This document shows, in pieces, positions 3,074 to 64,000 of a stretch of DNA of 64,000 nt. Positions within the stretch are counted from its first letter, which is position 1, and each line of letters opens with the position of its first letter. A model generated the notes under the pieces. That model searched no databases, was not told where the DNA came from, and was given only the letters and a program-made list of their open reading frames with translations. Both the position numbers and the translations under genes were made by a program. The stretch spans positions 5,768,001 to 5,832,000 of the forward strand of contig NC_087250.1 in NCBI RefSeq assembly GCF_037042905.1, written 5' to 3'. This stretch comes from Lytechinus pictus. Lineage: Eukaryota.

Positions 3074-3139
3074 AAAGACCGAAAGAACGCTTCAAATAAG
3101 AAAGGGAAGAGCAAGAAACGAAGTTGCATCTTATTCTAA
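3074..3139 (+). CDS. Terminal coding exon of a probable Ras-family small GTPase (polybasic region + CaaX); upstream exons not found in the window
   Basis: Long pyrimidine tract and caacag acceptor, then phase-0 KDRKNASNKKGKSKKRSCILF-TAA. A polybasic stretch followed by CILF is typical of Ras/Rap/R-Ras C-termini. A long AT-rich UTR-like region follows. Confidence 0.75.
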   Translation, partial: KDRKNASNKKGKSKKRSCILF

Positions 3140-5669: not shown

Positions 5670-5946
5670 GTGAAGAATCAAACATTGTAAGGCAAAATAC
5701 CCTAACATGCACAACTTTGCTTGAGAAGTGTAGTATTGAGGTATTCTACCTGTGTGTGGGAAATGTCACCCTCGCTCTTCAAACATTAGATAGTCGGGAA
5801 GAGAATTCATGCAATTTGTCCATGTATGTTATAATTTGCTGATGCCAGCATTGTTAACAGGTAATGATTGCATTGAAGTTACGTCACTCGAGCCAGGCAA
5901 CTTGCTGGCCCAGCGGTCATGGAGTTGAGGTGAATCTATCATATCA

Positions 5947-6715
5947 ACACACTCTGTACATACTGTGAACATCATGCTGTGTACACACCGTCAATACGCT
6001 GTGAACACACTGGGACCACATTGTGAACCTACAGTGAACACACACTAAGCACATTGTGAACATACTGAAGACACTGTGGACACATTGAGAACACACTGTA
6101 ATCTCACTGTGAACATGCTAGGGCCACACTGTGAACACACTGGGACACCACTGTGATCTCACTGAACACACTGGGACCACACTGTGATCTCACTGTGAAC
6201 TCACTGGGAGCCTAAAGTGAATACAAACTGAGCACATTGTGAACATACTGAAGAGATTGTGAACACACTGGGACCACACCATGATTTCACTGTGAACACA
6301 CTTGGAGCCTACAGTGAACACACACTCAACACATTGTGAACATACTGAAGACACTGTGAACACATTGAGAACACATGTGATCTTACTGTGAACACACTGG
6401 GACCACACTGTGAACACACTGGGACACCACTGTTATCTCACTGTGAACACAATGGGACACCACTGTGATCTCACTAGGACCACACTCTGAACACACTGGG
6501 ACACCACTGTTATCTCACTGTGAACACACTGGGACCACACTGGGACACCACTGTGATCTCACTGTGAACACACTAGGACCACACTCTGAATACACTGGGA
6601 CACCACTGTGATCTCACTGTGAACACACTGGGACCACACTGATCTCACTGGGACCACACTGTGAACTCGCTTTGAACCAATACTCTGTGAACACACTATA
6701 GTCTTTCCAGCAGGG
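5947..6715. repeat. Degenerate ~11-bp-based tandem array (gaacacactgt / ggaccacactg)
   Basis: Direct repeats; the array ends in gtctttccagcaggg. Confidence 0.85.
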
Positions 6716-13652: not shown

Positions 13653-13663
13653 GAGAACCACTA

Positions 13664-13902
13664 CACTGTAAACACTGTGGTGTTAAAACTGACACCAATT
13701 GGTGTTAATAGAGGACCACACCCTGAGGTGTTAAAATAACACCCTAGAGATTGAACATAACACCAAAGAGTGTAAATGTAACAACCATAGGTGTTGTAAT
13801 AACACCTATAGGTGTAAAACTAACACCACCAATTTAACACCGGTATAAAATAACTGGTGTGGTCCTCTATGTACACCGGTTAACACCACAGTATTTGCTG
13901 TG
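13664..13902. mobile_element. 239-bp CAC...GTG MITE with 2-bp TSD (CMC/EnSpm-like); other copies 17032-17270, ~28038-28263 (truncated), 29158-29395, 45664-45902
   Basis: Near-identical copies in both orientations; TSDs of the four complete copies are TA, TG, TT and TT. Confidence 0.9.
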
Positions 13903-16449
13903 TACACCACGGCGCTTCCACATATCCTTCTGACATTAAAATTTAAGAACATTCATCATTGAATACATCAAAATAAAAACCCAGATCCAGATATGCAATA
14001 GCAAGCCCGGCACCTGAACGAAAACAAAGTATCAATCATTTTCAAAATTAATCCTTGATTTCATCCGCCCTGTGTTTATGAAAACAACACCAAATATTAC
14101 CAATATTTTCTTTTTTATGATTTTAAAGCTTAAAAATTATTTTGAAATTATCTTATTAAATCAATATTCTTTGGTACGAAGCTTCCAAGCAAAGCTTGAG
14201 TAAAATGCGAAGTATTTATATATGTAATATAACACACTTAAACAACGTTTTTTCATTTCTGGGAAGAAAATATGTTATCTTTCTTACACGTAAACAGTAC
14301 ATGGCATTTCAACTTTAGAAGGTAAGACCACCCCATCAAACTCTAATTTGAATAAAAAGATGAAAATCAAATAAGTTTCGCTAAATAAAAAAAAATGAAT
14401 GAAAAAAAATATACGCATATCCTGGTCGGTATATAGATGAAAGGACTGACGACATCACCATTTCATTATTCTTTTGTATTTGACTACATGAAATATGAAA
14501 TACATTAATTTTCTCCTCATTGTCATGTGAATCAATGATTTATTCCCACCTGAATATGTGGAATAAGTATTGTTTTAACATTTTGTGGTCCCATCAAGTT
14601 AGCGACTATTGTATAATCCCCCCCCCCGAAAAAAACCCCAGAAGAAATAGTCAGTGAGGGACATCATTGACTCTCTCATTTGAATGTTACTAAGATGTGC
14701 ATATAACTGTTTTGTCAGTGAAAAATAAGCGAAAGTTTAAAACTTTCAGATTTTACATCTTATTGTGGTGAATTTTCAACGATATGCTTGTTTCACTTTT
14801 CGCCATTGATTCAAATCAACATTTTTCTGTGGTGTACTTGACCTTTCAAGGAGAATAAAACAATTGGAAAGAGTATACTTGTGTGATAACAGAAAAATAA
14901 ACGAAACAAAACCCTATACGCGAAAATTGAACAGAAACAAATATTAAGGAAGTTATGAACATTTAAACGAAGCGTTTTTTTTATTGTGTAGTTCTGTTAA
15001 AAAGTAATCAGAGACCATACAGTTGGCAGGAAGCTGCCAAAAGCGTGACTTCCGGAATTTAATTACATCCTCGTGCATGTCAAACAGACAAAAAACCCTC
15101 AGATCAATGACAAGACGGTAATTTAAAGGGATTGAGTAACTCTGAGGAGGTTTGTATATAATTTCATTGTAGTTCCCTACATGCAGTGGCGGCACCAAGA
15201 GGGGAGGAGGCATCCCCCATTATCAGCGTTGCCTCCCCCCCAAAAAAAGAAAATACTAATCGTATTAAATAAAATAAAATAAATAAAAGAAACAATAAAA
15301 TAATTTTTCATACATATGATGACAAAATTTCCTTAGAATGTCCTGACCCTTTGTTAAAATAATAGGCAAAAAATACCAGCTCGCGCTTCGCGCACGTATC
15401 ATTCATTAAATGTGATCCACTTCATAATTTTCCGACACAGTACTTGAAAAAGTGTTGAAATTTACCTTTTTCAGAGCGTAATATCAAATGTCACTCAGCT
15501 TGCTTGCATTATTGATCTTCATGATTAAAAAAAAATGTATTCAGATTGCACAGATTCTAGGTCTAAATCTAAAACATGTGCACGCACGTTTAATGAGATA
15601 GCCTGTATGTTAATCATCCAGTTTCAGATCAGAATATTGTCTTCTCGCGCCTCACGATCGCACTATTAATGATACCCAATTAGCCATATATTCATGATTT
15701 ACAAAATATGAATAGAGTGCCCCGCTTTTAGGTCTAAAATCTCAATTTTCTTCTACTCACGCTTCGCGCTCGCGTCAATTGCTTAGTAACATACCTATCC
15801 CATTTATGAATACATAAAGTGCTTAGAAGGTAATTGTTTAGGCCATGGAATGTAAACAAGTTTCAGCTCGCGCTTCGGGCTCCCATTATTGAAATATGTA
15901 CCATATTCGTGGGTAGCTGTAAACAGTCCTTTTTCCTATCATGTCAAAAAATTCTGCTGGCGCTTGGCGTTCGCAGTAATCGTCTAGTTACATACGCATC
16001 TTGTTCAGGATTACAAACATTGCATGCCCAGAATTTTAAATTGTCAGGATAATACATGAAAGATAAAAAAAATAAATCACTCGCGCTTTGCGCTCGCACT
16101 TTTTATATGGGGCGTAGGAGATTATCTAATATTTATGGTGTTTTATAAGAATAGAGCTATTAGAAGTGACTGATCGGGGAAAATATAGGTGAAGATAATT
16201 TCAGGGCCCACCCCTATTGGCGAAAGTCGGATCCGCCCTTGTGACACATACACAAACATAAAAAAAAATATCCCCCCTGAAAAGGCAAGGACCCCCCAGT
16301 GCCCCCCCCCCCCCCAAGGAAAAAAAATCCTAGCTACGCCATATCGTAAACAAAATCATCTGTCCAGCTTTGCAAGACAGTGTTTTACGACGGGCCCAAA
16401 GTCTGTTCCGCCAAATCAATATACCGTCGTAAAGTCCAAGCGAAAAGTG

Positions 16450-16728
16450 GGATATGTGGCATCAATTAAATGGCAAACTTGAACCACAGAGGATATGAAA
16501 GTGGAAGTATCCTCACACGGAGCGCCCGAAATCATGACTTGTGAAACAAACACCCCGTTTGAAAGCAAGACATTGAGCACACTGAGCCAATAAAAGTGAA
16601 ACTTCATTGTGTGCCAACTCTTAATAGTCACTTGATAAGACAAGCTTCTGACCAACAACCAATATAGGTCGTTGTGTCTCAATCGAAACAGTTTTTACAT
16701 TTCGATAGAGTTTGTGTTGAAGCAGACC
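16450..16728 (+). promoter_or_regulatory. Proximal promoter/5'UTR of gene A with IRF/ETS-like motifs
   Basis: Alignable with 52556-52802. GAAAGTGGAAGT at 16497-16508 is identical at 52597-52608. CCAAT at 16587 is directly followed by IRF-E-like AAAAGTGAAACT at 16592-16603. Confidence 0.45.
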
Positions 16729-17019
16729 ATGGGCGCCAAAGGGTCAAAGAAGTCAACCATTGACAATGCTGACCCCGGAAGTGGTCTAGCAGGCAATGGT
16801 CAGCGGGACGAAACGCCTTCAGGCGATCCTAAGCCTTCGGTTGAGACCGGGAGAGATGCGGCTGTGAGCTCCACCGAAGCGGTTACAGCAACCCAAGCGG
16901 TTGAGACGTCGGGTGCGCAGGGAGCCTCAGGAGGTGCAGGCACGACTCCAGCTACGGAGTCCAGTAAGAAGGAAGCCACGACGGACATTCTTGATACAAC
17001 AGGGAGCTCAGAAAAAGCG
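16729..17019 (+). CDS. Gene A exon 1: MGAKGSKK myristoylation motif + low-complexity A/T/S/E/G tail (97 aa)
   Basis: Start context accATGG; donor GCG|gtacgt; paralogous exon at 52803. Confidence 0.9.
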
Positions 17020-20000
17020 GTACGTTAATTGCACAGCAAAAACTGTGGTGTTAACCGGTGTACATAGAGGACCACACCAGTTATTTTACACCGGTGTTAA
17101 ATTGGTGGTGTTATTTTTACACCTATAGGTGTTATTACAACACCTATGGTTGTTACATTTACACTTTTTGGTGTTATGTTCAATCTCTAGGGTGTTATTT
17201 TAACACCTCAGGGTGTGGTCCTCTATTAACACCAATTGGTGTCAGTTTTAACACAACAGTTTTTACAGTGTGTATACGCTTAAAAACGTATCGTTGCATG
17301 TGTGTGTGTGTGTGTGAGGGTGTGTGTGTGTGAGAGAGAGAGGGTGTGTGCATGAGTGTAAATATTTGTAGATTTTTAAATATTTATTTTGCCCATGATA
17401 TCTGTGATATCGGCTCCCGACATTGAGCTTAATTGAACCCATCGTCTGTAGCGAGTACCAGCTATAGCTCATAACAATAAAACTATCGTACCAGAAAATC
17501 ATTAAGATTGTACAAAAAGAAAACGAAATGATTTTTTATGGGTTTTATCATTCCTTTTGTCCCTAATTTTCAGATTTTTCCAGCTCACTGGATTGGTTTT
17601 CGAGAGATATTCGTACAGTACATTCCTGGTAAACCCTACACTCTCACCGAGTTCGGTGCCCATCTTTACTCCTCTAATGGACTGCATGGACGCCATGAGT
17701 TCAGGGCTATCGACGGGTCAGGATTGGCTAAAAAGGTTGGATTGAGGTAGGTTTGTGGCTTTGTGCTATAGCTCAGTTTTAGTTTAGTTTATTTCACTTC
17801 CATTTTCTGATAATAAACATAACAAACATATATACATATGTATGAATGTACAAAACAGAATAAGTGTCATAAGAATACTTCAATAATTAATTAACAAATT
17901 CGTAGGAAATAGATGGAATATATACAATTCTTTTGTTCCAGATACATTTTGATGATTAGACAAATAATAGATTACGGTTAGCATTTAAAAATGAAAATGA
18001 GGGACTTATTAAAAAGTGAAGCTTGTAATTGTAAGTCCCTTAGGATAAATTTATAGCAATCTTAATCGTATGTAATCAAAAGTAAAGTAAGACAATCTAG
18101 ACCATATATGAAGAAAGGCAAAATAGGTTTGAATAACAAGGAAAGTAAAGGGGGGGGGGGCAGTAACTACATAGGTTAGGGGGATAAGGGAATATTAAAA
18201 AACTGGGGGAAAAAGAAAACAAAAACAAAAAGAAACGATTATGTGTCCAGCAGAAAAGGGATAGCTAGTCTGCAAGCAAAGACTCGAATACAACACTAAC
18301 TGATATACATGTATAAAATGCCTGTTCATCTCACATTTTTGCCCAGTGCTATCTATGGATAATAATGTATTATTTAGTGTGATGTAAAATGATGTTGTAA
18401 TGACACCCAAATTGATTATTCTATTTCTGTCGTATTTAAATGGTCAATTTGTCAAGTGCATTGACTGTTGTTATTATTACCGCTATTGTTACTCATCATT
18501 GTTATTATTATTACTACTGTATTATGACAAGGGTAGGAAATACGGGGACATCCCGATAGACCGCGGGTCCGTTAGACCGCGGGTCCGATAGACCGCGGGT
18601 CCGATAGTCCGCGGGTCCGATAGACCGCGGGTCCGATAGTCCGCGGGTCCGATAGACCGCGGGTCCGATAGTCCGCGGGTCCGATAGACCGCGGGTCCGA
18701 TAGTCCGCGGGTCCGATAGACCGCGGGTCCGATAGTCCGCAGTGTGTGTAAAATTATGATCAGATATATCAAATGTCATCGAGAGGTCCAAAGGTCAAAT
18801 GATACGAGGCCATGGGGTTCTATCAGGTGCGGATCCATGGGGGGGGGGGGGGGCGAGGGGGAACTGCCTTACCCCCCCCCCCCACCCCCAGCTCAAAAAA
18901 AGAGGGGGGAAGAGGGGAAAAGGAGAGAATAAAAAAGAAAGAGCAAGATGGGAAAAGAACAGAATAGAAAAGAGAGTAAGAAGGAGAAAGGAAGAGAAGA
19001 AAAAAAAGAGAAGAAAAGGGGAAAGGAAAGACAAAGAAAATGGGAGAAGAAAAGGGGAAAGAAGAGAAAAAAAGAGAGGAGGGAAAAGGAAGAGGAGAAA
19101 AGAAAAGAAAGGAGAAAGTCAAAGGAGGAAAAAGAAGAAGAAAAAAAGAGGAAGGAAGAGAAGAATATTTAAATAGAGGAAGATGGGAAGAAAGATAAGA
19201 AAAAAGAGAGAGAGGAAGAGGGGAAAACAAGAGAAGAAAGAGAGAGAGAGAGAGGGGGAAGGGGGGGGGAGAGAAAAAAAAGATTAAAAGAAAAAAAGGG
19301 GGAAAGGAAAGAAAAAGAAAAAGGGAGAAGTAAAGGGGGAAAGAGAAAAAAGTGGAAGAGGGAAAAGAAAGAAAAGAAAAGAACGGAGTAAGGAAAAGGG
19401 GGAAAAGAAGAAGAAAAAAAGAGGAAGGAAGAGAATAATATTTAAAGAGAGAGGAAGATGGGAAAAGAGAAGGAAAAAAAAGAGAGAGTAAGGGGGGAGG
19501 AAGAGAAGAAAAACGAGAAAAGAGAGAGGAAAAGAGGAATACAAAGAGAAGAAAAAGAGAGAGAGAGAGGAGGAAAAGAAGAAAAGAAGAAAAGGGGAGA
19601 GGAAGAGGGAAAAAGAAAGAGAGAAAAAAAGAGAAAGGAAGGAATGGGAATGAGGATAAGAGAAAGAAAAAAAAGAAAGAAAAGGAGATGGGAAACGGAA
19701 GAGGGAGATGTTGACCTGGACGTCGATTTGATGGCGCCAAAATGACGTTCGAACTATGGGGCGCCGAACTGATGTTTGAACTGGGAGGGGGCGCCAAATT
19801 GATGTTCGAACTAGGGGAGCGCTAATTTGAATTTTGACCATAATGCGACAAATACATGTTTCAGAGAGGGGGAGGGAGGGCAAAGTTATATTTCACACGG
19901 GGGCGCCAAGTTTATGTTCAACCGAGGGCGCCAAATTGACCTTGAACTTAGGGGGCTTCATGCAAATTCATTTTCGACCGGGGGCGCAACATTGCTCGTA

Positions 20001-26000: not shown

Positions 26001-29000
26001 GACTCGTCAGAGGAGGCAGACTCCCCCCCCCCGTAGGTACACTAGTGGCCAGCGGTATAAGATTTATCCGAAAATAAAAATGAAGAGAAACAGGGAAGGA
26101 AATTGAGCTATTAGTTTCTGATTATACAGAGCACAAACAAAATTAAACGACACGTCTAAATGTCATGCAACCTGTTTAATGACACGGACTTCCGATTTTT
26201 AGTAGGCAACAAGACATTTGCTCCGGCGACAATTAGTCGGGGCTTTATTTTGTCTGTGATATAGAGTTAGGGTTGCGACATTTTTGTTTTGTTTTAAGAT
26301 AAGGATATGGTATAGGGTTACATCAAGGGTTGAAGTTGATCGTTCCAATAATGTGTGTAATTGGCGGCGGAGCAATTGTCATGGAATATTTTATCAAAGA
26401 AAATTTAAACAAATGTTTTTAAAGGAAACAAACATGGGTGTAGTCTGCCATTTAGTGTGTACATTAATAGCTACACTGTTAGAAAATGTATCCTTATTAA
26501 TAAAAGAAGTTCCAGCAGCAGAGTCTCGAGAACACCTGTAATCTTACCAGGTTATATTATATCATATAAAATTACAGGAAATTGGTATTTGGTGTATGGA
26601 ACCTTACAAATTTCCTTAAGTAAAGCATCCTTTTCCCCTTTCTAAATAGACCTGTTCAGTTAAATTGCAGAAAAATTCCTGTTTTATGAATTTACAGAAT
26701 GATTCTGTTTATTGCTTTCTGCAAAATCTACTTTTTTCCTTTAAAATCAGGGGGTTGACAGTGTAGTCTTACAATACACCTCAGTTTCAAATATCTATTA
26801 CAAATTACATCGTAAAAACTATGGTTACACTTCGTAATTCCGAAGGTTCGTAATTCCGAAGGTTCTTTATTCCGAAGGTTCGTAATTCCGAAACACGTAA
26901 ATTGCCTATACCTCGATGTTCGTTAATCCGAAAACGTAAAAGGGTTCGTTAATCCGAACATTTGTGGCGTTATTCCGAAGGTTCGTTATTCCGAAGGTTC
27001 GATAATCCGAAAACGAAATAAGGTTCGATGTTCCGAAGGTTCGTTAATCCGAAAACGAAATAAGGTTCGTTGTTCCGAAGGTTCGTTAATCCCAAAACGA
27101 AATAAGGTTCGTTGTTCCGAAGGTTCGTTAGTCCGAAAACGAAATAAGGTTAGTTAATCACATTCAGTTTTCGGACTAACGAACCTTCGGAATTACGAAC
27201 CTCATTTCTTTTTCGGATTAACAAACCTTCGGAATTACGAACCTCACTTCGTTTTCGGACTAACGAACCTTCGGAATTACGAACCTCATTTCGTTTTCGG
27301 ACTAACGAACCTTCGGAATAACGAACCTTCGGAATATCCGAACCTTCGGAATAACGAAGCTTCGGAATTACGAAGGTATGCGAAAACGGTTGGGTTAGAT
27401 TTTTACCAGCACGAGGGTAATTATGTGTCCAACCGATTTGGGGCAGTATTTTACCCAATGCGGGAAGCATATTGCCCAGTAAGGTTAAAAAATAAGCAGC
27501 AAATATTTTAGAACGGGAATTTTTTTTCATCACACTGGATAAATAAAAAATACCCAAAAGAAATACCCAATGTTGGTTGGACGCATAATTACCCTCATGG
27601 AGCACTTTTACCCAATGTCTTTTTAGAGTGTTGCTTTGAAGACATATTTTAACGGCCAATATTTTTTCTTCTTCTTCTTCTTTCCACATTTTGATATGAT
27701 TGATTCCAACGTGTATTTGTTATGGCCCTGGCAAGCAGGGGTGCTGCGTGTATTATTTACCATAGGCAGCACTCCTCGAAATCTGGTTGGTATGCTGAAT
27801 AAAGGACATTTCATCAGAATCACGTTCATTTTGTTACGACCCCCCCTTTTCTTGGGGGGGGGGGGAGGGGGCTTGTCAAATTTCTCCTGTACCAAAATCA
27901 CCTTCACGTCTTTATGTGTCGCGATACCCATATTATTTTTGGGGGCTTGCCAAATTTTATCCAGCACCCCCTTTAAAGAAAAAAAGTTCCCATCCATGCA
28001 GGCCCCTGATATTTGTCCACCTCATGCAAGAACTGCAGTGGTGTTAACCGGTGTACATAGAGGACCACACCAGTTATTTTACACCGGTGTTAAATTGGTG
28101 GTGTTAGTTTTACACCTACAGGTGTTATTACAACACCTATGGTTGTTATATTTACACTCTTTGGTGTTATGTTCAATCTCTAGGGTGTTATTTTAACACC
28201 TCAGGGTGTGGTCCTCTATTAACACCAATTGATGTCAGTTTTAACACCACAGTTTTTACAGTGTAGGCCCGTATTCTGAAGTCAGGTTTAACTTAGACCA
28301 TGGTCTAACTCTGTGCTAAAATTATGGGAAGCCGAAAGTGTCAAAACTTTTATTAATTCGTATGCTTCTTATGTTTACTGTGCTCTTTCCTGATTCATCG
28401 ATGGTGAAGACAATCGTCTATTTATGCTTCCTAGACAATTATGAATGATTTGAGAGCCAAATGAGCTGAAATATGATACCTCTACCGTTAGTGATTTATG
28501 TAACAATTGGCTTTCCATACTTAAACCACAACTTTGAATCTGAGTTTGAATTAAACCCGACTTCAGAATACGGGCCATAGTATTCAAACATAATTATATA
28601 GATTTACAAATTTAGATGATTTGAGAGAGACTTGATGAAAATAGTAATAATGAGAATAGTAATAATAATAATAATAATAATCATCATCATCATCATCACC
28701 ATAATCAGTATAGCGCACGTATCCACCTGTAGGTGCTCAAGGCGCTCTTATAGTGCCTCGATGATAACAAGAGTCTATTCACACTGCAAACACTCCGGTG
28801 TTGATTTAACACCTGACCGGAATCTATATATGTCCACACCAGAGAAGTATTGCAACAACACCAGTTTGGAATCATAGCCATGCTGTTTTAATTTTAATTG
28901 GTGTTGTATCTGGTAACCAAACTGGTGTAGTTTAACACTTCTCTGGTGTGGACATATATAGATTCTGGGCTGGTGTTAAATCAACACCGGTGTTTGCAGT

Positions 29001-32000
29001 GCACTGGACGGTCTATCCACCCTTACTGTGTGCATACAGAAACCGTGACGTCCTTTTAACCATCAACAACCTAACCTCGGGTTTGACCAATTCGAGTCCT
29101 CTGGCGATTCTGGAATGTTTTACGGACATTGGACCCAACATATGCTTGGTAATATTTCACAGCAAAAACTGTGGTGTTAACCGGTGTACATAGAGAACCA
29201 CACCAGTTATTTTACACCGGTGTTTAATTGGTGGTGTTAGTTTTACACCTATGATGTTATTACAACACATATGGTTGTTACATTTACAATCTTTGGTGTT
29301 ATGTTCAATCTCTAGCGTGTAATTTTAACACCTCAGGGTGTGGTCCTCTATTAACACCAATTGGTGTCAGTTTTAACACCACAGTTTTTACAGTGTTGAT
29401 TTACTTTTTAATTTCTTGAATCCTTAATCCTCAGTTTTATTATTAAAAAGGGTATTTTTTAATGAAAAACGTACATACGATCAGGCGGATCAGCTTCTCC
29501 AGGGACCCATGCCATAAAAAAAGTTGTTATGATAGCAACTCTTGCTGGAATGTCAACTACCATTACACCAATGAATATTCTGTTTCCTGATATGAAAGTT
29601 TACATTCCGTCAAGAGTTGCTATCATAACAAATATATGAAATAGGACCCAGGTGAATATAAATTGCAATAAAATAGAATTTACCCAGAAAACGAAACAAA
29701 AAATCGGGCAATTAATATTTTATGACACGCATGGCCGTATGCGTACGCAGCAGAAACTTACTTTTTTTCTGGAAACTTTCACACAATTTATCAAAGTGTC
29801 AACTAAATATCCTCTATGACAAGCTCGTACGCCTCGCTCCCTGGCTTTTGAAATTCTCCAACAATTTTACGCGTCTTGCCCCCCCCCCCCGAAAAAAAAT
29901 CTGACTACTGCCATATGATCACGCGACACTTATATATAATATTTCGTGAATGTTTTAAGCTATTATGAAACCGTGAAAACGGAATAGAGGCTAGAATTCC
30001 TGCCACATTGCATAGGTCTATGGGGAATTAAGTTTGGTACTTGCATGCAAATCATTTGAGAAACAAATTTTGAAAAAAAAATTATGTTATTCCTTGATGG
30101 ATCTCTAATTCTTTTGCTTTTACTGAATCTAAAACCACTATGAGAACGGGGTGAAATTTCCTCTCTTTTTACTGCATATCCTAATATGTTCATACAGACC
30201 ATTTTTCTTATTTTTTTTAATTTCGCCGATCCCCGTGTCAATGGAGTTACTTTCGTTTCATTTTGAATACGCATCCTGATATGTTCATACAGACCTTTAG
30301 AAACTTTTATTTTCTATTTGGCTAATCCTTGTCCCAATGGGGTTACTTTCATGTTATTTTTACTCTTCTGTCTTTGTTTCCTTTTACTCTTATTTTCATT
30401 GTCAGGTGGTTGAGCGGAACGGAAATGAAACGTGGCTGTTTGCTTTTCATCTAGACGAAGAAGGTACAACTTGACTTTACCATAGATATCAAATAAATGG
30501 ATGGGGCATCTTAATTAAAGGTCAAGTCCACTCCAGAAAAATGTTGATTTGAATAAATAGAACAAAAGTCAAACTAGCAAAAAGCTGAAAATTTCAGCAA
30601 AATCAGATGTAAAATAAGAAAGTTATGACACTTAAAAGTTTTACTTATTTTCACAAAACAGTGATATACAAAACTCAAATGAGACAGTCGATGATGTCCC
30701 TCACTCACAATTCTTTTGTTTCTGTAATTGTTTTAATTATACAATATTTGATTTTTTAACAGATTCGACAACGTGACTGAATCATATAGTATTTAACAAT
30801 GCCCATTTTACATGTTCAGGGAGGAATTAATCGTTGTTTCACTTGACAATGAAGGCAAAAATAGAAAATTCCCTATTTCATGTAATAAAATACGAAAGAA
30901 GTAGTGAGTGGATGACGTCATCTGTCCAGTCTCCTCATTTGCATACCTACCAGGATGTGCATATAACTGTTTTGTGAAATTAAGCGAAACTTTAAAATGT
31001 CATAACTTTCTTGTTTTACATCCGATTTTGATGAAATTTTCAGTGTTATGCTTGTTGGATTGTTCTCTTTCTACATGTATTCGAAACAATTTTTGTTGGG
31101 GTGGACTTGTCCTTTAAAGTGATTGTTTAACATTGGTTTGACTTTAAAAAAATCTGAGCTAGAAGGTCACACATGTCACCAGTGTCTGTGATATGTTACA
31201 AAAATGAAGCCCAGAAAAAATTGCGCTCGAAAATAATTATTTAGTGCTTCAAAAATTGAAATATAAAATGACCAGAAACACCACCTTAATTTCATCCCAT
31301 ACACTTATGTGTATTATTTAGGCGTCTAGTAGACGCCTATTTACAAAATCGGGGTTTGCCTTGTATTTTTAGCTTTTCTTTCTCAATAATGGTTGTTTTC
31401 AGGGTTTATAAGTTCTAATACATGCACTTGTACACATGTTTCATCTTGGTTTAAGAATTTTTAAATCGGCTGCTCACAAAGTTAAACAATACCTTTAACC
31501 ATTATACCGTTGGCGTTAATGGGCAGCTGGCACCGTCCGCAGTGCGTGCGTTTGTCAAATAGCCCCATCTGAATCCGGGGGGCGTGCACCTAATTTAAAC
31601 GAGCGCGTTGAGCTCTATCCAGCTTGTTGATATCGATGTAATTCACTTCTTAATATTTTCATGAACTACAGGGTAACTTTATAAAAAAAGAAGTTATGTT
31701 TAAAGAAGTCATTTTTAAAAGAAAATATGGAGGATTATAATCAGGAGGTGTTGTAAAAGTTTTCTCTATCAGCAAAAAAAAAATTCTTTGTCCGTGCGTA
31801 ATGCCGATCACTGAACATCTCCTTACACTGTAAATTAGAAACCGTCTTATTTCCAAATAATAAATCTCTTTTTTGCGTGATGCCTTTTGTCATTTTTTCA
31901 GCCTTTATGATCTCGTGTAAATGCAGTTTAGGTGGTGTTTTAATATCAATACAATATATTCATGAATCGTGTAATTCTATTTTTGTTGGTATTTTCATTC

Positions 32001-35000
32001 AGATATGAATTTTGATCAAGTCTGGAGAGAGCCGTAGCAAGATAGATGACCAAGACTGGGACCTATCTTGCTACGGCCAGATCACTTGATCATGACGCCC
32101 CCCCCCCCACCTTTAAGAAAGTTCTTTGACATTTTAAGCCCGTTGTTTAAACCGTATATCTATCAACTATTGTTTAAAGTTTCAAAAAAGTGGTTTCAAA
32201 GCGTATAAACAATTTCAAAGAGTTTAATCAATTGCGGACAAAATTAAACATCTTGTTAGAGTGATGGGCTTTACACAATATGCTTATAATTCATTCTAAA
32301 TGGCGTTTTTTTCAGTGAGTGTTATAGAAGATGATTTTTTTTACTTCTCAGGCAATCGACCGATCGTCAAGGAGCTCTTCACCCATAAGTTCGACCATCA
32401 CGTCAGGACGTTTACTTTTCTCGTGATAATTCCTCCCGAGGCAGCGTTCGATGTGGCTGCTCAGTATGCGTACGAATCTTCCGCACCCGTCCAGATAATA
32501 CTCAAAGAAGATGACCATTACATGGAGATCGATACCGAGAAGGCGACCTTTGTGCCAGCATCGCGTAAGTTTTATCATATAATAATAATAACAATTTTAT
32601 ATACCGCAAAATCGCAAAATTGCCTCTAAGCGGTTAAGAGAAAGGAAAATGAAGTATAAAGGAAATAGAAATACTTTGCACAACAAAATGTATCAAAACT
32701 AATATTACAATTTACAACTTTGTCACCAGATCATGAATAAAGAAATACCATGAAGTTTTGAATAATTGAATTTAATTGATTAACTAATAAATGATAATAT
32801 TAATAATGATGTGACTTATAAAGCGCCAAATCCACTCTGTGGAGTGCTCAAGGTGCATAAAAAGCTAGGAGTTAAATAAAAAAAGTGTTTAGAAGATTTT
32901 TTTAAGTTTCAAAAGAGGTACATCTTTTTATGTCTTCAGGAAGGCTATTCCACAAAGTGGGGCATGCAAAAACAAATGATCTTCCCCCAAGTTTTCGAAA
33001 TCTTAGGAATAACAAGGAAGCCAGAAGTGGATAAGGGCAAACACCTGAATTTATTTTCATATTTCACAACAAAGCATATAATGACATAATACAAAAAATA
33101 CATTTGATACATACAGAATACAGAAGATGATGAAAATGGCAGTTAATAAAAGAGAAATATGAAGGAACCTGCATAAAAAGCGGAGCTTGTAGTGTCTGCA
33201 GGTTCCTTGAAGTTCAAGGCCACCCCAGAAAAAAGTTGATTTGAATGAAGAGAGAAAAATCAAACATGAATAACGATCAAAACTTTAGCAAATCCGGATG
33301 TAAAATAAAAAAAAGTTATATGACATTTAAAAGTTACTTCTGTATCACGTGGAGTCGGTGTATTATATAAGGTCAGATCATTTATTCCTCGCCAAACATT
33401 ATTTACTGTATATAATTCTATCATTCTATCAGGTGAATGGGTACCCGGCAGGAGTAATTCCTTGCATGCACTGAGCGCCGGTGATGGTAGCTCGAGCTAA
33501 AGCCGGGGTAATAATAGCAGCGCTTTGTATCCTCTGGCAAAAAGCGCTTTATAAATCCAACTATTATTATTATTATTATTATCATACTGCCTTATATTTC
33601 ATATTGTAATGTTGTATGGGCTTGTCAAAAAACAAAAATCAACTCTTTATTTCTTCTTCACAAAAAAGCTGTTCGTATCTGTACAAACTCAGACTATCGA
33701 GCTCATTCAAACCCATTGTTCCATAAGGTGAGAACCCTAACCATACATGACATTCATTACCTTCATGACCTTTAAATTGCTCTTTTCATGTACAGATTCC
33801 AAATCCGCGAACTTCCAGACAACCTTTTAAAAATGTTCCGTTTCAATACATCTATTCATAATTACCCAACCCGAACCTTTACAAATATTCATTTAGAAAA
33901 CCCAAGAACAGCTCTTTCCCATAGATCTATTCGACATACTGGCCCTGAAATTTGGAATTCTCTTTCTATCTATATTCGTTCGTGCCAAACGAAAAATTCC
34001 TTTAAGAGGCAAGTTAAAAATTTCCTTCTTTCAAAATATGAAACACAAGGCTGATAATAATGCCATGTATATTGTATTACCATTACATGGTTACATAATA
34101 TACCACCACACATATGTAATTCCTTTTTTGCTATATTATTTGTGATTGTTATACAAACAAAATACCTCACCAACGAGTCTTCGTTATCAAAACATGATGT
34201 CTTGTATTTCATATATTGTTAGAACTCTCTTCATGTTTCTCTCTTTCTATTCAGTTCTTTCTTTCCCACTCTGTTTTTTCACCCTCACTCTATCTCTCTT
34301 GCTCTTCTTTTAACTCTTAGTTGATGTTCGCATCATTTAATGTATTATTTTAGCCAATGTATAATTATCTATCTTTGCATTTTTTTTTCTTGGAACATCA
34401 TTCTGAAGCTCATATATGACTGATTATACTAATATGAATATTATGTAATGTTGAAAATGATGTATATATATATATGAATAAAATCAAATCATATCAATCA
34501 AATCAAATCAAAACAGTTCTATGCTCAACTCAGTGATATGCAAATGAGAGAGTAGATGATGTCACTCACTATTTCTTTTGTTTTTTTATTGTTTGAATAA
34601 TACAATATTTCAATTTTTACGAATTCGACAATTAGGACCCCCTTGCTTGAACCACAAAATTTTAAAATAATGGAATTACAAGTGATCAGGGAGGAATGAA
34701 ACACTGTGAAGACAGAATGAACACACTGTGGATACACTCTGAACACACTGCGAACACAATCTGAACACACTGTGAACACACTGTAAACACAATCTAAACA
34801 CACTATGAATACTCTTTGAACACACTGTAAACACAATCTAAACACACTATGAATACTCTTTGAACACATTCTGAACACACTGTGAACACAATCTGAACAC
34901 ACTGTAAACACAATCTGAACACACTCTGAACACACTGTAAACACAATCTGAACACACTCTGAACACACTGTAAACACAATCTGAACACACTCTGAACACA

Positions 35001-38000
35001 CTGTAAACACACTGTAAACACAATCTAAACACACTATGAATACTCTTTGAAAACACTGTGAATACACTGTAAACACAATCGGAACACACTATGAATACTC
35101 TTTGAACACACTGTAAACACAATCTGAACACACCATGAATACTCTTTGAACACACGGTGAACATACTGTAAACACAATCTGAACACACTATGAATACTCT
35201 TTGAACACACTGTAAACACAATCTGAACACACTATGAATACTCTTTGAACACACGGTGAACACACTGTAAATACAATCTGAACACACTCTGAATACTCTT
35301 TGAACACACTGTGAACACACTGTAAACACACTATGAATTCTCTTTGAACACACTGTAAACACAATCTAAACACACTATGAATACTCTTTGAACACACTGT
35401 GAACACACTGTAAACACAATCTGAACACACTATGAATACTATTTGAACACACGGTGAACACAATCTGAACACACTATGAATACTCTTTGAACACACGGTG
35501 AACACACTGTAAACACAATCTGAACACACTATGAATACTCTTTGAACACACGGTGAACACAATCTGAACACACTATGAATACTCTTTGAACACACGGTGA
35601 ACACACTGTAAACACAATCTGAACACACTATGAATACTCTTTGAACACACGGTGAACACACTGTAAATACAATCTGAACACACTCTGAATACTCTTTGAA
35701 CACACTGTAAACACACTATGAATACTCTTTGAACACACGGTGAACACACTGTAAACACAATCTGAACACACTATGAATACTCTTTGAACACACTGTGAAC
35801 ACACTGTAAACACAATCCGAACACACTATGAATACTCTTTGAACACACTGTAAACACAATTTGAACACACTATGAATATTCTTTGAACACACTCTGAACA
35901 CACTGTAAACACAATCTGAACACACTATGAATACTCTTTGAACACACGGTGAACACACTGTAAACACAATCTGAACACACTATGAATACTCTTTGAACAC
36001 ACTGTAAACACAATCTGAACACACTATGAATACTCTTTGAACACACGGTGAACACACTGTAAACACAATCTGAACACACTATGAATACTCTTTGAACACA
36101 CTGTGAACACACTGTAAACACAATCTAAACACACTATGAATACTCTTTGAACACACTGTGAACACACTGTAAACACAATCTAAACACACTATGAATACTC
36201 TTTGAACACACGGTGAACACACTGTAAACACAATCTGAACACACTATGAATACTCTTTGAACACACTGTGAACACACTGTAAACACAATCTAAACACACT
36301 ATGAATACTCTTTGAACACACTGTAAACACAATCTAAACACACTATGAATACTCTTTGAACACATTCTGAACACACTGTGAACACAATCTGAACAAACTG
36401 TAAACACAATCTGAACACACTCTGAACACACTGTAAACACAATCTGAACACACTCTGAACACACTGTAAACACACTGTAAACACACTGTAAACACAATCT
36501 AAACACACTATGAATACTCTTTGAAAACACTGTGAATACACTGTAAACACAATCTGAACACACTATGAATACTCTTTGAACACACTGTAAACACAATCTG
36601 AACACACCATGAATACTCTTTGAACACACGGTGAACACACTGTAAACACAATCTAAACACACTATGAATACTCTTTGAACACACGGTGAGCACACTGTAA
36701 ACACAATCTGAACACACTATGAATACTCTTTGAACACACTCTGAACACACTGTAAACACAATCTAAACACACTTTGAATACTCTTTGAACACACTATGAA
36801 TACTCTTTGAACACAATGTGAACATTGTGAATACACTGTATTCTTTCCAGTAGTTATTAATCTAACGATGTCACGATGGGCAATCGACAACCCTTGAAAG
36901 TTGTGTTTCCAATATACATAGCGTATGTTTATCCATTTTTATATCCCTAGCTTTTGCAGAACGTGTACCAAGGACCTTTAAAAGCACATTTGGTTTTGCA
37001 TTTTTAAGAACCGTTTGTAATAAAAATACAGAGAATGTTTTATTTCATTTTATTTCACAGACAAATATTAGACCAAAGTGATGTCTATGTTGTATTGGGT
37101 AGCGGAAAACAATTCTTCCCCTTTGGAATTTTCTTCCATTTGATTATTTTTATTTGGTTTTTTTTTGTGTGTAATAATGAGCAGAATTCAACCTGCATGA
37201 ATGCCCAATTCTTCCTAAATTCCGTTAATTTTCATTACCCTTTCTGTATTATTGAAAACCGGGCGGACTTGGCCTGCGTATTAGTGTAAAGATGGTAAGG
37301 GGGGGGGGGGTCGGACCATCTCCCCTCCCACTGAATTAAATTTTACAAAGAAAAGGGAGAAAGAAATAAAATTAAAGCGAAAGATTGAAATATATCATTT
37401 TCCGAATATTATGTCAAGATCTATTACATTTATATATTAAAAAGGTCACAATTAATGTTATTTTCTGTTTAGAACTATTGCTGCATGTACCATATCTGGC
37501 CCTCCCAAAAATGAATTCATTGCAAACATTTGTGTTAGGGAGCCCGGGCCTACAAATGAAACAGCAACATTCTATATATATATATATTTATATATTGTTT
37601 TTGCATTGTATCAGAAACTTTAACTTTGAACTTCTACGAAAGAATTGACAAAAGGAATGAGGTCGGCGAAGGGGGCATCCCCGTTGCCATTTCGACATCG
37701 ACGCCGTACCACAACGTCGAGAGGGACGCCGAGTCTGGAAGCTACTGCCACGACCCAATGTGCGTCGAAGGCGTCTCCGAAGGTCCTTTGGGTGTCGTTG
37801 TAAGTTTTACCTCATGTGAGCTCATCAGAGCACACTCTAAAAACAAATCAGTCAAAAATGACTAGGTAATAGGGTCAGCTGGGTGCAACTGTTATTCTAG
37901 TCATATTTGACTATTTTATAGTCGTATTTTACTAGAACATAGTTATTTTGGACTATTTTCAAGTCGTATTTTACTAGAACATAGTTATTTCTGACTAGAA

Positions 38001-41000: not shown

Positions 41001-43760
41001 CAAAATGCTTCCCGCGCGTAAAATACTACCCCAAATTAGAAGGACACATGATTACCCTCGTGCTGGTTATTTTTTTTTACAGGGTACTAGTTGTTCTTTC
41101 AGGATTTACTGACTCGTTTTCTTGACTTACTTACTCGTTATCGTGACTTACTAGCTCGGTCTCTCGACTTGCTAACTTGATATCCCGCTTTACTTTATTA
41201 TCAAAGGTTTTTCCATACTGGATGACGGAACGGGGCACTGTGATTCCACAGAATAACATGTTCTTCCTCAGTAGTCTTGCTCCAACAGGTGATGCTGTGT
41301 TCGAGGCTGCAAACACTCAAGAAGGTATACCGAATTTATGGATGATGATGGTGGTGGTGGTGGTCATGATAATGATGATGATGGTGATGATGATGGTGGT
41401 GATGATGATTTTGATGAAGGTGACGATGATGGTGGTGGTGGTCATGATGATGATGATGAAGATGATGGTGGAGATGATGATGGTGGTGATGATGATGGCT
41501 GATGGTGATGATGATGGAGATGATGATGATGATGATGATGATGGAGATGATGATGATGGTGATGGAGATTATTGAGATGTTGATGATGATGGGGATGGAG
41601 ATGATGATTATGGAAGTGGTGATGATAATGATGATGATGACGGTCGGGTAATGATAATGATGATTATGGTGGTGGTGATAATGGTGGCGGATATGACAGC
41701 GATGACGATGGTGATGATGATGGTGTTGATGCTGATGACATCGATAATGGTGACATTATTCTCATCAACATTCAAATCGAAGCATGATATGCATGGGGAT
41801 AAGATAAATAATTTAAAAAAAGCTTACGATGTTAATGATGGTAAAGGTGAATCCAAACTTGAACGTATACGTTCAAGTTTGGATTCACCTTTATATACGT
41901 TGGATTCACCTTTATATACGTATACGTTCAAGTTTGGATTCATCATTATATATAATGATGTGTAAAAATGAGTAATAGAAAGTGCAAAATCATGAAATTT
42001 CAGCGGAAAACCGATAATTCTGATGGTCACTGACACAAAATGTATATGTGGGACAATATATCATTATGACTGGAAAAATAATACCCGACATTTTATGGAA
42101 TTCTGTGCTTAGTTTGCTAATTTCTCAGTAATTACGCATTTTTTCCAAGAGTCTTTTGCATGTACACTCTAAAAACACTGAGTAAAACTTTACCCAATAT
42201 TGGGTAGAAAAGGAACATGCATGTTTGCTGGATATCTTTTTACCCCATATTGGGCTATTCAACGCAACATTGCGTTAAAGGGGAAGTCCACCCTGAAGAA
42301 AACTTTTTTGGAAAAATAGCAGAAAAAATAGTAAAAAATATTGGTGAAGGTTTGACGAAAATCCGTTAAAGAATAAGAAAGTTATTATAGTTCAAAGTTT
42401 TGGATTTGTGACGTCATAAACGAGCAGCTGCCCCATGTGTTATGTAATATAAAATGCATGAATTTCAAATTTTATATAGTTGCTGTTGACTTAATTTTGT
42501 TTTCTATTCATGATCGGGTGTGAAATGATTTGTCTATTGATATACAAAAGGTACCGTAAAAACCATTTTCAATTTTCTGAGAAAATGACATTTCATTGAT
42601 TTTTTACCATTCGCTATGTAGGAATGCTGCTCGCATATGACGTCACAAATCAAATAATTGAAATTCTAATAACTTTTTAATAATTTGATGAATTTTTCTC
42701 AAACCTTCGGCAATATCTTTTATTATTTTTTCTGCTATTTTTACAATAAACTTTTTGTCAGGGTGAACTTCCCCTTTAAATTGACAACATATTGGGTATA
42801 TCTTCGTACCCAACCATCATGCATGTTCCCATTTTACCCAATATATTGGGTGAACCTTTTTTAGAGTGTACATTTTTGTTAATTTATTATATACAAACCC
42901 TCTGGTGGCCATTTTATTGGATTCTGTTCGAACTCATTTTGAGGTCGTAACCCCCCCCCCCCGGGGGGGGGGGGGGGGGGGGCACTTACATTGACGAGTG
43001 GATACCATGCGCGACCAAAAAACACGTAAAAAGGATGTCCTTTTCACCGGGCACGTTACGTACGTAATGTGATAAGGGTGTCAAAAACACAAAAATAATG
43101 AAAAAAGGGTGTCTATTTCGCTAGGAAAATTACGTGTTTAGGGTCGAATTTGCGGGAATGATAAAACAAAATTAAAATGTTTTATAAAGGATGTCCATTT
43201 TGCGCCAACACTTCGTGTTTAGAGTCCGATTTGCGCGAGGTGTAGAAGGTGGGGTCGTACTAAACCAAATAAGCTAAAGCCGACGACCGAAGGACCCGTA
43301 ACAATAAAACAGTCCTGTACTTGTTTAGGGGTTATTTTCAGGGAATATTTGCCAAGAGTATCGTTTTGTTTCCAATACTTGTTAAGGGTGGGGTTTCGCA
43401 CGCCAATACCTGTTAAGGGGTGCATTTTCAGAATATGGAAATTACGTGTTTATTAGGGTGCTTTTCGAGACCCCATGGTCGCGCATGGTATCCACTCGTG
43501 AATGGAAGTGCCCCCCCCCCCGGGTCGTAACCACAACTGGTATTTGTATTTTGTACATCACCTTCCGTTTCCTCTCAACAGAACTCTACATGGTATCATC
43601 AGTCTATAACCAAGACCCAGGTGTGTTGATTGCTAGCCTTGACAAATCCAGCGCCGACTTTAGAGTAATTCAGTTAGATTCGGGAAGTCAGACGTCACTC
43701 AAGGACATTTTCTCGAGGCTTGCCGATCCAGAAAAACGACCGGAATATCCTAGTCTGTAG
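16729..43760 (+). CDS. Gene A (8 exons, 1326 nt CDS, 441 aa): myristoylated PDZ-like + interleukin-1-like beta-trefoil protein
   Basis: join(16729-17019,17574-17746,29040-29148,30406-30463,32352-32564,37615-37799,41207-41324,43582-43760). All introns are GT-AG, intron phases 0,2,0,1,1,0,1 are mutually consistent, and there is no internal stop. PDZ-like and IL-1-like motifs run continuously across the junctions. Confidence 0.85.
17574..17746 (+). CDS. Gene A exon 2: first half of PDZ-like domain (IFPAHW...EFGAHL...AIDGSGLAKKVGL-R)
   Basis: ttttcag acceptor and AG|gtaggt donor (phase 2); conserved in the paralogue at 63835. Confidence 0.9.
18824..23616. mobile_element. Non-autonomous hAT-like element (4.8 kb) containing a ~0.8-kb polypurine tract
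   Basis: 8-bp TSD GGTTCTAT (18816-18823, 23617-23624); 14-bp TIR CAGGYGCGGATCCA. Confidence 0.85.
23767..24453. mobile_element. TA-flanked TIR MITE, itself interrupted at ~23836-24172
   Basis: TA|CGGAGCCTTGAAAATGCCATC ... GATGGCATTTTAGAGGCTCCG|TA. Confidence 0.75.
24743..25057. repeat. 63-bp minisatellite, 5 copies
   Basis: atttccacatgagtgtgc... recurs at 24743, 24806, 24869, 24932 and 24995. Confidence 0.9.
26823..27377. mobile_element. Foldback MITE with ~15-bp internal repeats (ttccgaaggttcgtaa)
   Basis: Left-arm repeats are inverted in the right arm (ttacgaaccttcggaa). Confidence 0.8.
28782..29001. mobile_element. CAC...GTG MITE with CA TSD
   Basis: CA|CACTGCAAACAC ... GTGTTTGCAGTG|CA. 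Confidence 0.8.
29040..29148 (+). CDS. Gene A exon 3: PDZ-like core (R-NRDVLLTINNLTSGLTNSSPLAILECFTDIGPNICL)
   Basis: atacag acceptor in phase 2 completes GLR-NRDVLLTIN, matching the PDZ GLxxGDxILxIN pattern; donor TTG|gtaata. Confidence 0.85.
30406..30463 (+). CDS. Gene A exon 4 (VVERNGNETWLFAFHLDEE-G)
   Basis: Strong pyrimidine tract + gtcag; phase 0 in, phase 1 out (AAG|gtacaa). ICL-VVER resembles the last PDZ strand. The exon is too short for the ORF track. Confidence 0.8.
30519..31494. mobile_element. Two abutting Kolobok-like MITEs (30519-31113 and 31118-31494) sharing one TTAA
   Basis: TTAA|AGGTCAAGTCCAC...GTGGACTTGTCCT|TTAA|AGTGATTG...CAATACCT|TTAA. The second element is the reverse complement of 43790-44163. 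Confidence 0.8.
32352..32564 (+). CDS. Gene A exon 5: linker and first strands of the IL-1-like domain (...AAFDVAAQYAYESSAPVQIILKEDDHYMEIDTEKATFVPAS)
   Basis: ttctcag acceptor and C|gtaagt donor; phase 1-1; coding-like GC content inside an AT-rich intron. Confidence 0.88.
33430..33583 (+). mobile_element. SINE 3' portion with L2-like tail
   Basis: caggtgaatgggtacccggc core, agcgcttt...aagcgctttataaat stem-loop and (ATT)n tail. Confidence 0.65.
33590..34512 (+). mobile_element. LINE (L2/Crack-like) 3' fragment
   Basis: SHRSIRHTGPEIWNSL...NSFKRQVKNFLLSKY, then AATAAA and an (AATCA)n tail. Confidence 0.75.
34700..36853. repeat. 2.1-kb satellite of 11-bp monomers in 44/55-bp higher-order units
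   Basis: Units gaacacactgt-aaacacaatct-gaacacactat-gaatactcttt, with or without a fifth 11-mer. Confidence 0.95.
37615..37799 (+). CDS. Gene A exon 6: IL-1-like middle strands (Q-TLTLNFYE...GGIPVAIS...PMCVEGVSEGPLGVV)
   Basis: gtatcag acceptor in phase 1 and GTT|gtaagt donor in phase 0. IPVAIS resembles IL-1beta IPVALG. Confidence 0.88.
37833..38085. mobile_element. CAC...GTG MITE with CA TSD
   Basis: CA|CACTCTAAAAAC ... GTTTTAAGAGTG|CA. Confidence 0.8.
38882..40362. mobile_element. Non-autonomous hAT-like element inserted in a degenerate ~21-bp array (ttactaactcgttctctcgac, ~38620-41175)
   Basis: 8-bp TSD CCCGAGTT; imperfect TIR CAACCGCGTAGCCAGG / CCTGGCTAGGCGCCTG. Confidence 0.8.
41207..41324 (+). 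CDS. Gene A exon 7 (VFPYWMTERGTVIPQNNMFFLSSLAPTGDAVFEAANTQE-E)
   Basis: tcaaag acceptor in phase 0 and AAG|gtatac donor in phase 1. MFF...VFEAA resembles IL-1 FVF...FESA. Confidence 0.82.
41340..41750. repeat. (GAT/GGT)n microsatellite at the start of intron 7
   Basis: Direct reading of the sequence. Confidence 0.9.
42165..42868. mobile_element. CAC...GTG MITE (TA TSD) with a nested Kolobok-like element at 42279-42775
   Basis: TA|CACTCTAAAAA...TTTTTAGAGTG|TA; inner TTAA|AGGGGAAGTCCACCCTGA...TCAGGGTGAACTTCCCCT|TTAA. Confidence 0.8.
42953..43524. mobile_element. TIR element with CCCGGG ends
   Basis: gcacttacattgacgagtggataccatgcgcgacca is inverted at 43475-43511; TCGTAACC is duplicated on both flanks. 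Confidence 0.75.
43582..43760 (+). CDS. Gene A exon 8, terminal (LYMVSSVYNQDPGVLIASLDKSSADFRVIQL...EYPSL*)
   Basis: ctcaacag acceptor in phase 1; TAG at 43758-43760. LYMVSS and ADFRV resemble IL-1 WYIST and TDFTM. Confidence 0.85.
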
Positions 43761-48920: not shown

Positions 48921-48924
48921 ATAC

Positions 48925-52802: not shown

Positions 52803-53087
52803 ATGGGCGCCAAAGGGTCAAAGAAGTCAAACAGGGCAACCGTTGACAATGCTGACCCAGGAAGTGGTTTAGCAGGCAATGGCCAGCTCGACGAAACGCC
52901 TTCAGGCGATGCTAAACCTTCGGTAGAGACCAGGAAAGATGCGACTGTGAGCTCCACCGAAGCGGTTACAGCTACCCAAGCCGCTGAGACGTCGGGTGCG
53001 CAGGGAGCCTTGGGAGATGCAGGCACGGCTCCAGCGGAGTTATCTACGACGGACATTCTTGATACATCAGAGGGCTCAAAAAAAGCG
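52803..53087 (+). CDS. Gene B (tandem paralogue of gene A) exon 1, 95 aa
   Basis: MGAKGSKKSNRATVDNADPGSG...DILDTSEGSKKA; same donor position (GCG|gtaggt); indels relative to gene A preserve the frame. Confidence 0.88.
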
Positions 53088-56269: not shown

Positions 56270-56327
<58 letters not shown>

Positions 56328-59888: not shown

Positions 59889-60431
59889 CTATAATCGTAT
59901 CTGGTCTTTTACCTGTATGAATTATAAGTCTTTATAATGTAACCTCTCGAATTTACCGGCGTAATAACAATGCAGCGTTTAATGACCTACACCTTCACCG
60001 TTTCACTTGAATGAACATAAGTCACGCAAATTATATATATCACACCAGAAACCGAACGCACGACACTACACACCTCCGAGTCAGCCCGAAAGACCCCAAA
60101 GACCCAGGTAAAATTACCCCACATTAGATTCGTCATGTTTGTACATCATATGTGTATGTATGTGTATATTTACATATGTATGTATATATATATGTAGATG
60201 TTTATGTGCATGTATTCTGTATATGTATGTATTTGCATATATTGTATACGTACGACGTCATTGTTACATATGCTATTACACCTGCATTATATGTCCATAT
60301 GTTCATCTGTTCCTCCCTCTGTACCATTGATTATGTTACATATGTTATTATAACAGTATTATATGTCCATATGTCCATCTGTTCCTCCCTTTGTAATATT
60401 GATTATGTTTCGTTCGCTTTTGTTTATAGAA

Positions 60432-60463
60432 CCCATGAAGAAGGCCTAAGGCCGAAAGCTTGA
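60432..60463 (+). ncRNA. Hammerhead-like motif in the Penelope pLTR (mirror copy at 56377-56408, minus strand)
   Basis: CCC-AUGAAGA-A-GGCC(UAA)GGCC-GAAA-GCUUGA; the core has A in place of C3. Confidence 0.55.
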
Positions 60464-63834: not shown

Positions 63835-63998
63835 TTTTTTCCTGCTCACTGGATGGGTTTTCGAGAGATATTCGTACAGTACATCCCATGTAAACCCTAC
63901 ACCCTCACCGAGTTCGGTGCTCATCTTTACTCCTCTAATGGACGCCATGAGTTCAGGGCTATTGACGGGTCAGGACTGGCTAGAAAGGTTGGATTGAG
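63835..63998 (+). CDS. Gene B exon 2 (FFPAHWMGFREIFVQYIPCKPYTLTEFGAHLYSSNGRHEFRAIDGSGLARKVGL-R); gene continues beyond the window
   Basis: ttttcag acceptor and AG|gt donor at the window end; 9 nt shorter than gene A exon 2, in frame. Confidence 0.88.
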
Positions 63999-64000
63999 GT

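Follow-up and report, generated by a model that had tools for sequence, protein, structure and literature searches.

A conserved N-terminal acylation signal on a sea urchin subfamily of IL-1anc precursors

Introduction

The closest described relatives of the sea urchin gene studied here belong to the IL-1anc family (Fontenla-Iglesias et al. 2026; PMC13736523). In the available part of that paper, N-termini are treated only as NLSs and signal peptides. Eight localised IL-1anc proteins are described there as cytoplasmic, nuclear, or secreted, and none of the eight starts with Met-Gly. A (F/L)ES motif in strand 9 is often conserved. The route by which PDZ-containing members leave the cell is stated to be unknown.

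The nearest published concept to a lipid-modified precursor of this family is mammalian pro-IL-1 alpha, which is lysine-myristoylated (Lys82/Lys83) and membrane-associated according to the part of a review available (PMC8339906). Two further systems offer N-terminal likenesses. In BASP1/CAP-23, a G-x-K-x-S-K-K pattern precedes a long polar low-complexity region (PMC7494789, in part), while dual-acylated SH4 proteins (HASPB, Src family) are targeted to membranes in a Gly2-dependent manner.

Here, we analyze a 64,000-nucleotide stretch of the Lytechinus pictus genome (hereafter, the window), which holds one IL-1anc gene (gene A) and the beginning of a tandem paralogue (gene B). Sequence comparison indicates that gene A carries a real and conserved N-acylation signal, in a subfamily overlooked within an otherwise known family; the signal is apparently unreported. 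The terms “myristoyl” and “palmitoyl” have no occurrences in the main text and supplements of the IL-1anc paper (PMC13736523) or in the main text of its preprint, and neither MGAKG nor five locus identifiers of the subfamily appear in seven text supplements of PMC13736523. Among the matches listed in a literature search that left most subscription journals outside, the name “IL-1anc” was met only in the paper and its preprint, and no paper listed for myristoylation and interleukin-1 in invertebrates had, by its title, an invertebrate IL-1 as its subject. The signal would make one residue, Gly2, a handle on whether membranes control an invertebrate IL-1 precursor.

Results and Discussion

Gene A encodes an IL-1anc in which a PDZ domain lies between a disordered linker and an IL-1-type beta-trefoil. 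In a model guided by the L. variegatus protein, it has 8 exons and 441 aa, with no internal stops, GT..AG at every intron, and intron phases 0,2,0,1,1,0,1 (Table 1). Exon 1 contributes 97 aa from MGAKGSKKS to the GT donor. The exon match at 32354-32563 shares 99% identity with a Lytechinus pictus protein and 87% with L. variegatus LOC121417411.

Table 1. Features of genes A and B in the window.
Feature	Position	Strand	Basis
Probable 5' untranslated region, gene A (ATG-free)	16567..16728	+	spliced-contig colinearity and ATG/stop scan
Possible cryptic AG acceptor, gene A 5' UTR	16707-16708	+	sequence scan
Putative N-myristoylation motif MGAKGSKKS (Gly2, Ser6, Lys7), gene A	16729..16755	+	sequence; conserved in homologues
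Gene A exon 1: motif and disordered A/T/S/G-rich linker	16729..17019	+	exon 1-2 junction in spliced contigs
Gene A exon 2: PDZ domain, first half	17574..17746	+	protein-guided model and spliced contigs
Gene A exon 3: PDZ domain, second half	29040..29148	+	protein-guided model
Gene A exon 4: PDZ end and next strand	30406..30463	+	protein-guided model
Gene A exon 5: interdomain linker and beta-trefoil start	32352..32564	+	protein match and protein-guided model
Gene A exon 6: beta-trefoil with low-confidence insert	37615..37799	+	protein-guided and structure model
Gene A exon 7: beta-trefoil, FEA replacing FES motif	41207..41324	+	protein-guided model and alignment
Gene A exon 8: trefoil end and stop codon	43582..43760	+	protein-guided model
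Gene B exon 1: tandem paralogue, first nine codons identical to gene A	52803..53087	+	sequence
Gene B exon 2: PDZ start; gene continues past window end	63835..64000	+	protein-guided model

The published list may have missed this subfamily because the L. pictus database models of the cluster are fragmentary. Model P0001 is without its N-terminal half, the initial stretch of P0004 matches the retroelement endonuclease of the window, and the RefSeq model P0005 seems to merge two tandem genes into one model, with an out-of-frame end. The added subfamily, which includes several genes of S. purpuratus and Lytechinus, is absent from the published list of five per species.

Structural models place gene A within the IL-1 family. 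In the model of the L. variegatus orthologue, residues 1-104 are unstructured (pLDDT <50) and are followed by the PDZ domain and then the trefoil. The PDZ domain, which is absent from the earlier sequence-only reading, lies at residues ~115-203. Its profile matches the PDZ domains of Shank3 and PSD-95 (E ~7e-8), with structural matches at Z 7-8.8; from a single sequence, Pfam PDZ_6 gives E 0.008, which is below its cut-off, and a PDB search gives weak PDZ matches only. The trefoil was modeled from P0001, which is ~95% identical to the window's exons, and has 12 strand elements over residues 41-206 (pTM 0.70). Folded alone, it has IL-1 alpha as its top structural match (Z 16.3, rmsd 2.4, 137 aligned), then IL-33 and a glycosidase trefoil (Z 14.7), then IL-36 and IL-37, with FGF18 at Z 13.5. 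Foldseek places IL-18 first (E ~1e-6). The initial recognition of an IL-1-like protein is thus borne out at the level of the fold. Pfam detects no IL1 domain in P0002 or P0001, and finds it in 1/18 alignment members. A profile search returned 22 matches, including LpicIL-1.4 (E 1.3e-20) and PminIL-1.3 (E 1.7e-11); P0022, an unrelated repeat protein among the 22, and P0014, a fused model, were left out of alignments. Atlas feature matches to IL-1 clusters stand at 0.91.

Gene A resembles LpicIL-1.4 and PminIL-1.3 in having a PDZ domain followed by an IL-1 trefoil, without a hydrophobic signal sequence. By inspection only, its N-terminus is polar and free of any hydrophobic run, and no signal peptide is apparent. 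The L. variegatus orthologue is 24% identical to LpicIL-1.4 over 340 aa (E 4e-21). The subfamily nonetheless differs from the published IL-1anc proteins: it stands outside Table S2 (PMC13736523), has an N-terminal NMT motif, and has FEA for FES. The FEA of gene A aligns with the FES of PminIL-1.3, and FEA or FKA is found across the subfamily.

The ATG at 16729 is probably the true start codon of gene A, since a spliced contig crosses the upstream in-frame stop. This stop is TAA at 16636-16638 in gene A; gene B likewise has an upstream in-frame stop, at 52596. In neither gene does an in-frame ATG lie in between, and both genes have a strong start context (A at -3, G at +4). Exon 1 is joined to exon 2 across a 554-nt intron in contigs of X1 and X2, two of the four runs examined among the 24 listed, which come from one study and whose RNA status is a guess. 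The X1 contig is colinear from 16567, so that the stop at 16636 lies within it, and that of X2 is colinear from 16641. Relative to the window, each has 8 substitutions and a 3-nt gap, with codons 1-9 unaffected, and both read through the AG at 16707-16708, the equivalent of the acceptor used by P0005. The contigs speak for the joints listed rather than for 5' ends, and may contain some pre-mRNA. The start codon assumed in the sequence-only reading is supported by the X1 contig. In the raw RNA runs X19 and X20 (~6% read), there was no depth over 16534-16941, i.e., most of exon 1, and these runs are silent on other tissues or infection.

The MGAKGSKKS opening is common to both paralogues, at 16729 in gene A and 52803 in gene B, as first noticed. 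The two are not independent evidence, because their first nine codons are identical. Across exon 1, the codons of genes A and B show 9 synonymous and 16 non-synonymous differences, with 0 in codons 1-9, a sample too small to show selection. The window's six frames contain 1910 open 8-codon starts led by ATG; 21 of these fit MGxxx[ST] and 2 fit MGxxx[ST]K, the pattern of genes A and B. The evidential weight of the motif lies with its distant homologues and not with the paralogue pair.

These homologues retain the motif in three genera. Our test set (n=23) comprised the two window genes and 21/42 collected proteins, omitting fragments, most fused models, duplicates, and non-homologues. MGxxx[ST] is found in 12/23 sequences, all 12 of which also have Lys7, and these represent four N-terminal types: MGAKGSK (Lytechinus), MGGKASK (S. 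purpuratus), MGIHASK (L. variegatus), and MGSKASK (Diadema). Gly2 and Ser6, whose conservation had been proposed as a check on the motif, are therefore kept, together with Lys7, in Lytechinus, Strongylocentrotus, and Diadema homologues. Core identity is 47-52% among the Lytechinus, S. purpuratus, and L. variegatus types and 20-25% to Diadema. Against Diadema, residues 2-7 are identical at 4/6 positions, with a core identity of 20-21%. The pre-PDZ linkers vary from 40 to 109 aa among homologues and also differ in sequence. Conservation is concentrated on Gly2, Ser6, and Lys7. A tree of 17 cores separates the Diadema MG proteins from the group of the window, with moderate deep support.

The 11 non-matches comprise one protein with Gly2 and three cysteines, one with Gly2 replaced by Asp, three that are apparently 5'-incomplete, and six that are motif-free, namely the LpicIL-1.4 group and PminIL-1.3. 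Exon 1 is also missing from an older model of LOC100892317. A further homologue search, over 7538 candidates, gave 3 matches and brought in no protein from starfish or amphioxus; the N-termini of these taxa were therefore taken, outside the tree, from Table S2 (PMC13736523). In that table, counted by eye, 13/104 rows start with MG and 4/104 match the consensus (three amphioxus, one starfish). All three amphioxus proteins (3/3) start MGK[ST]SSK and continue with a cysteine cluster. Among starfish, one protein starts MGGIFSK and a further four combine Gly2 with Cys at positions 3-5; 0/33 vertebrate rows start with MG. The motif is dispensable across the IL-1anc family, and the closest named relative, LpicIL-1.4, is without it.

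Two other patterns were seen at these N-termini. Asp or Glu occupies position 2 in close paralogues of Met-Gly proteins in four cases (P0027, P0043, and, in Table S2, PminIL-1.10 and PminIL-1.4). These could be tuned soluble forms, decay, or just a common transition. In the same table, AplaIL-1.7 (MGCAVGK) and PminIL-1.5 (MGNVARKR) have an internal Met-Gly motif resembling a real start; acylated members may therefore be undercounted.

N-myristoyltransferase (NMT) prefers Gly2 and Ser/Thr6 (PMC3724820, PMC5492501), and Lys7 is a recognition residue that pairs with NMT Asp471 (PMC7048800). With Gly2 at the probable start, Ser6, and Lys7, gene A fits the NMT consensus assigned to it by the sequence-only reading. 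On these preferences and this N-terminus, we consider N-myristoylation of the gene A product quite likely. Speaking against it, one in vitro NMT1 table gives its three G-x-K-x-S peptides a Vmax of 1.6-3.4, where the G2A control has 1 and Src 25.8 (PMC8982324), although BASP1 has Lys4 and is myristoylated (PMC7494789). A yeast screen, in a dual-lipidation context, likewise yielded no Lys or Arg at position 8 (PMC3724820). With regard to NMT activity in sea urchins, their flagellar creatine kinase is reportedly myristoylated.

Membrane association of the gene A product is the somewhat more probable outcome. Myristoylation is insufficient for anchoring, and myristate alone anchors weakly, according to the available part of a review (PMC10940682). 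The three lysines of gene A are cancelled by Asp12 and Asp15, giving a net charge of +1 over residues 2-20, so that association is expected to be reversible. The net charge is +4 to +5 in S. purpuratus homologues and +1 in those of Diadema, which have two lysines in the N-terminal cluster. The proposed likeness to a BASP1-type basic anchor is overstated: the G-x-K-x-S-K-K pattern is shared, but the basic cluster is smaller, with three lysines in gene A where the first ten residues of BASP1 contain five (PMC7494789, in part). Lys7 can also be accounted for by its part in NMT recognition (PMC7048800). BASP1 also lacks folded domains, and its resemblance to gene A is confined to the motif. The stretch that follows, described at first as acidic and Ala/Thr/Ser-rich over ~90 residues, is indeed rich in these three (Ala+Thr+Ser 38/88 over residues 10-97, with Gly 12) and no more than mildly acidic (Asp+Glu 14, Lys+Arg 6). 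An NLS is commonly recognized by the pattern K-K/R-x-K/R, and by inspection KKSN and KKRS fall outside it, so that we rejected an NLS as the meaning of the lysines.

Cysteines distinguish gene A from the dual-acylated SH4 proteins, whose Gly2-dependent targeting it is otherwise predicted to share. No cysteine lies near the N-terminus of genes A or B, which therefore have no palmitoylation site there. The amphioxus and starfish N-termini in Table S2 do resemble the dual-acylated type. Pro-IL-1 alpha, in turn, shares with gene A an IL-1 precursor, and, as predicted features of the latter, a fatty acid on the N-terminal propiece and membrane association (PMC8339906, in part). It differs in the site of acylation, which is an internal lysine modified by an unknown enzyme, whereas in gene A NMT is predicted to modify the N-terminal glycine; it also has no PDZ domain, and the propieces are without sign of homology.

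We lean slightly towards the following reading as a whole. Gly2 of the precursor in this sea urchin subfamily would be co-translationally N-myristoylated, and the myristate with two to four lysines would confer weak, reversible association with cytoplasmic membrane faces. A distribution over both endomembranes and the plasma membrane would be likelier than firm tethering to the plasma membrane. The PDZ domain and trefoil would be held off the bilayer by the long disordered linker, and cleavage within this linker would set both free. Conservation of the motif suggests a membrane-associated class of IL-1 precursors. Release by linker cleavage is the more tentative part of this reading, and less likely than not. 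A candidate caspase site, DILD (DxxD), lies at residues 86-89, near the linker end, and is kept in genes A and B and the L. variegatus orthologue. A similar caspase site, DEPD, has been mapped in SpurIL-1.3; SpurIL-1.1 and SpurIL-1.2 also contain DEPD, and their cleavage is not reported in the available part of that paper (PMC13736523). By analogy, cleavage at DILD would free the PDZ domain plus trefoil.

The lipid may instead serve mainly for protein binding or as a switch, through calmodulin or a lipid-binding carrier, with the protein mostly soluble. The low net charge and the lack of cysteine near the gene A N-terminus are consistent with this, as is BASP1, in which calmodulin is bound through the myristoyl group together with alternating basic residues (PMC7494789, in part). 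Yet Gly2 is paired with cysteines in amphioxus and starfish proteins (Table S2) and in one S. purpuratus homologue (MGGNICCCK), and since this pairing is the usual dual-acylation membrane signal, it points to membranes as the common purpose. We regard the switch as unlikely for gene A. It is a little less probable again that the product serves as an intracellular PDZ scaffold anchored to membranes, its trefoil never being set free as a cytokine. The change of FES to FEA or FKA would suit such a role, but the trefoil is nearer to the IL-1 family than to FGF or lectin trefoils (Z 16.3 vs 13.5 for FGF18), and other IL-1anc members are immune-induced (PMC13736523, in part).

The sequence-only reading had inferred that anchoring positions the precursor for unconventional release, a step beyond the present results. 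In its strong form, export would be directed by the anchor itself, which would sort the precursor into extracellular vesicles or carry it across the membrane, as with Leishmania HASPB. Vesicles are enriched in myristoylated proteins, and the Src octapeptide is enough to load Cas9 (PMC8982324); N-terminal acylation is required for HASPB export (PMC3491706); and the stated ignorance of the release route of PDZ-containing IL-1anc proteins (PMC13736523) leaves room for it. HASPB, however, also needs palmitoylation, its myristoyl-only mutant remaining near the Golgi (PMC3491706, in part), and gene A is without a nearby cysteine, which makes export by the anchor improbable. Least probable is an unused motif, with the true start upstream or the peptide a poor NMT substrate. 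In its favor, there is a usable AG acceptor 20 nt ahead of the ATG, and P0005 is spliced at the corresponding site; the contigs may be partly pre-mRNA, and K4-type peptides have a low Vmax (PMC8982324, in part). Against it, P0005 is an apparent fusion with an out-of-frame end, the same Met-Gly starts annotated proteins in three genera, and conservation is focused on Gly2, Ser6, and Lys7.

Returning to the membrane-associated, linker-releasable precursor, a broader extension is speculative. Invertebrate deuterostomes (sea urchins, starfish, amphioxus) might have a lipid-anchored IL-1 branch, in which N-terminal myristate, with lysines or palmitoylated cysteines as a second signal, holds the precursor at membranes and governs its release by linker cleavage or vesicles, and in which repeated Gly2-to-Asp/Glu changes give soluble paralogues. 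If so, membrane-bound pro-IL-1 would represent a design that is ancient or has recurred, and pro-IL-1 alpha would echo it.

The window has several other features. An upstream gene has its last coding exon at 3074-3139 (+), which closes with a lysine-rich stretch and CILF; a polybasic tail of this kind with a CaaX motif is typical of small GTPases. A 913-codon minus-strand frame at 56324-60516, with reverse transcriptase and GIY-YIG matches and flanked by 642-bp inverted repeats, is a Penelope-like element inside gene B intron 1. IRF/ETS-like motifs lie at 16497, 16594, and 52597, upstream of both start codons, and one is common to both genes; they are weak evidence, because such motifs number 10 and 19 in the window. 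Long tandem-repeat arrays occupy 34696-36840, 5946-6700, and 46653-50953, reported as one in gene A intron 5 and two between genes A and B. A 240-bp repeat is present in five copies that are 94-98% alike (13661-13903, 17032-17271, 28026-28266, 29154-29396, and 45664-45903), two of which lie within 15 bp of the gene A exon 1 and exon 3 donors.
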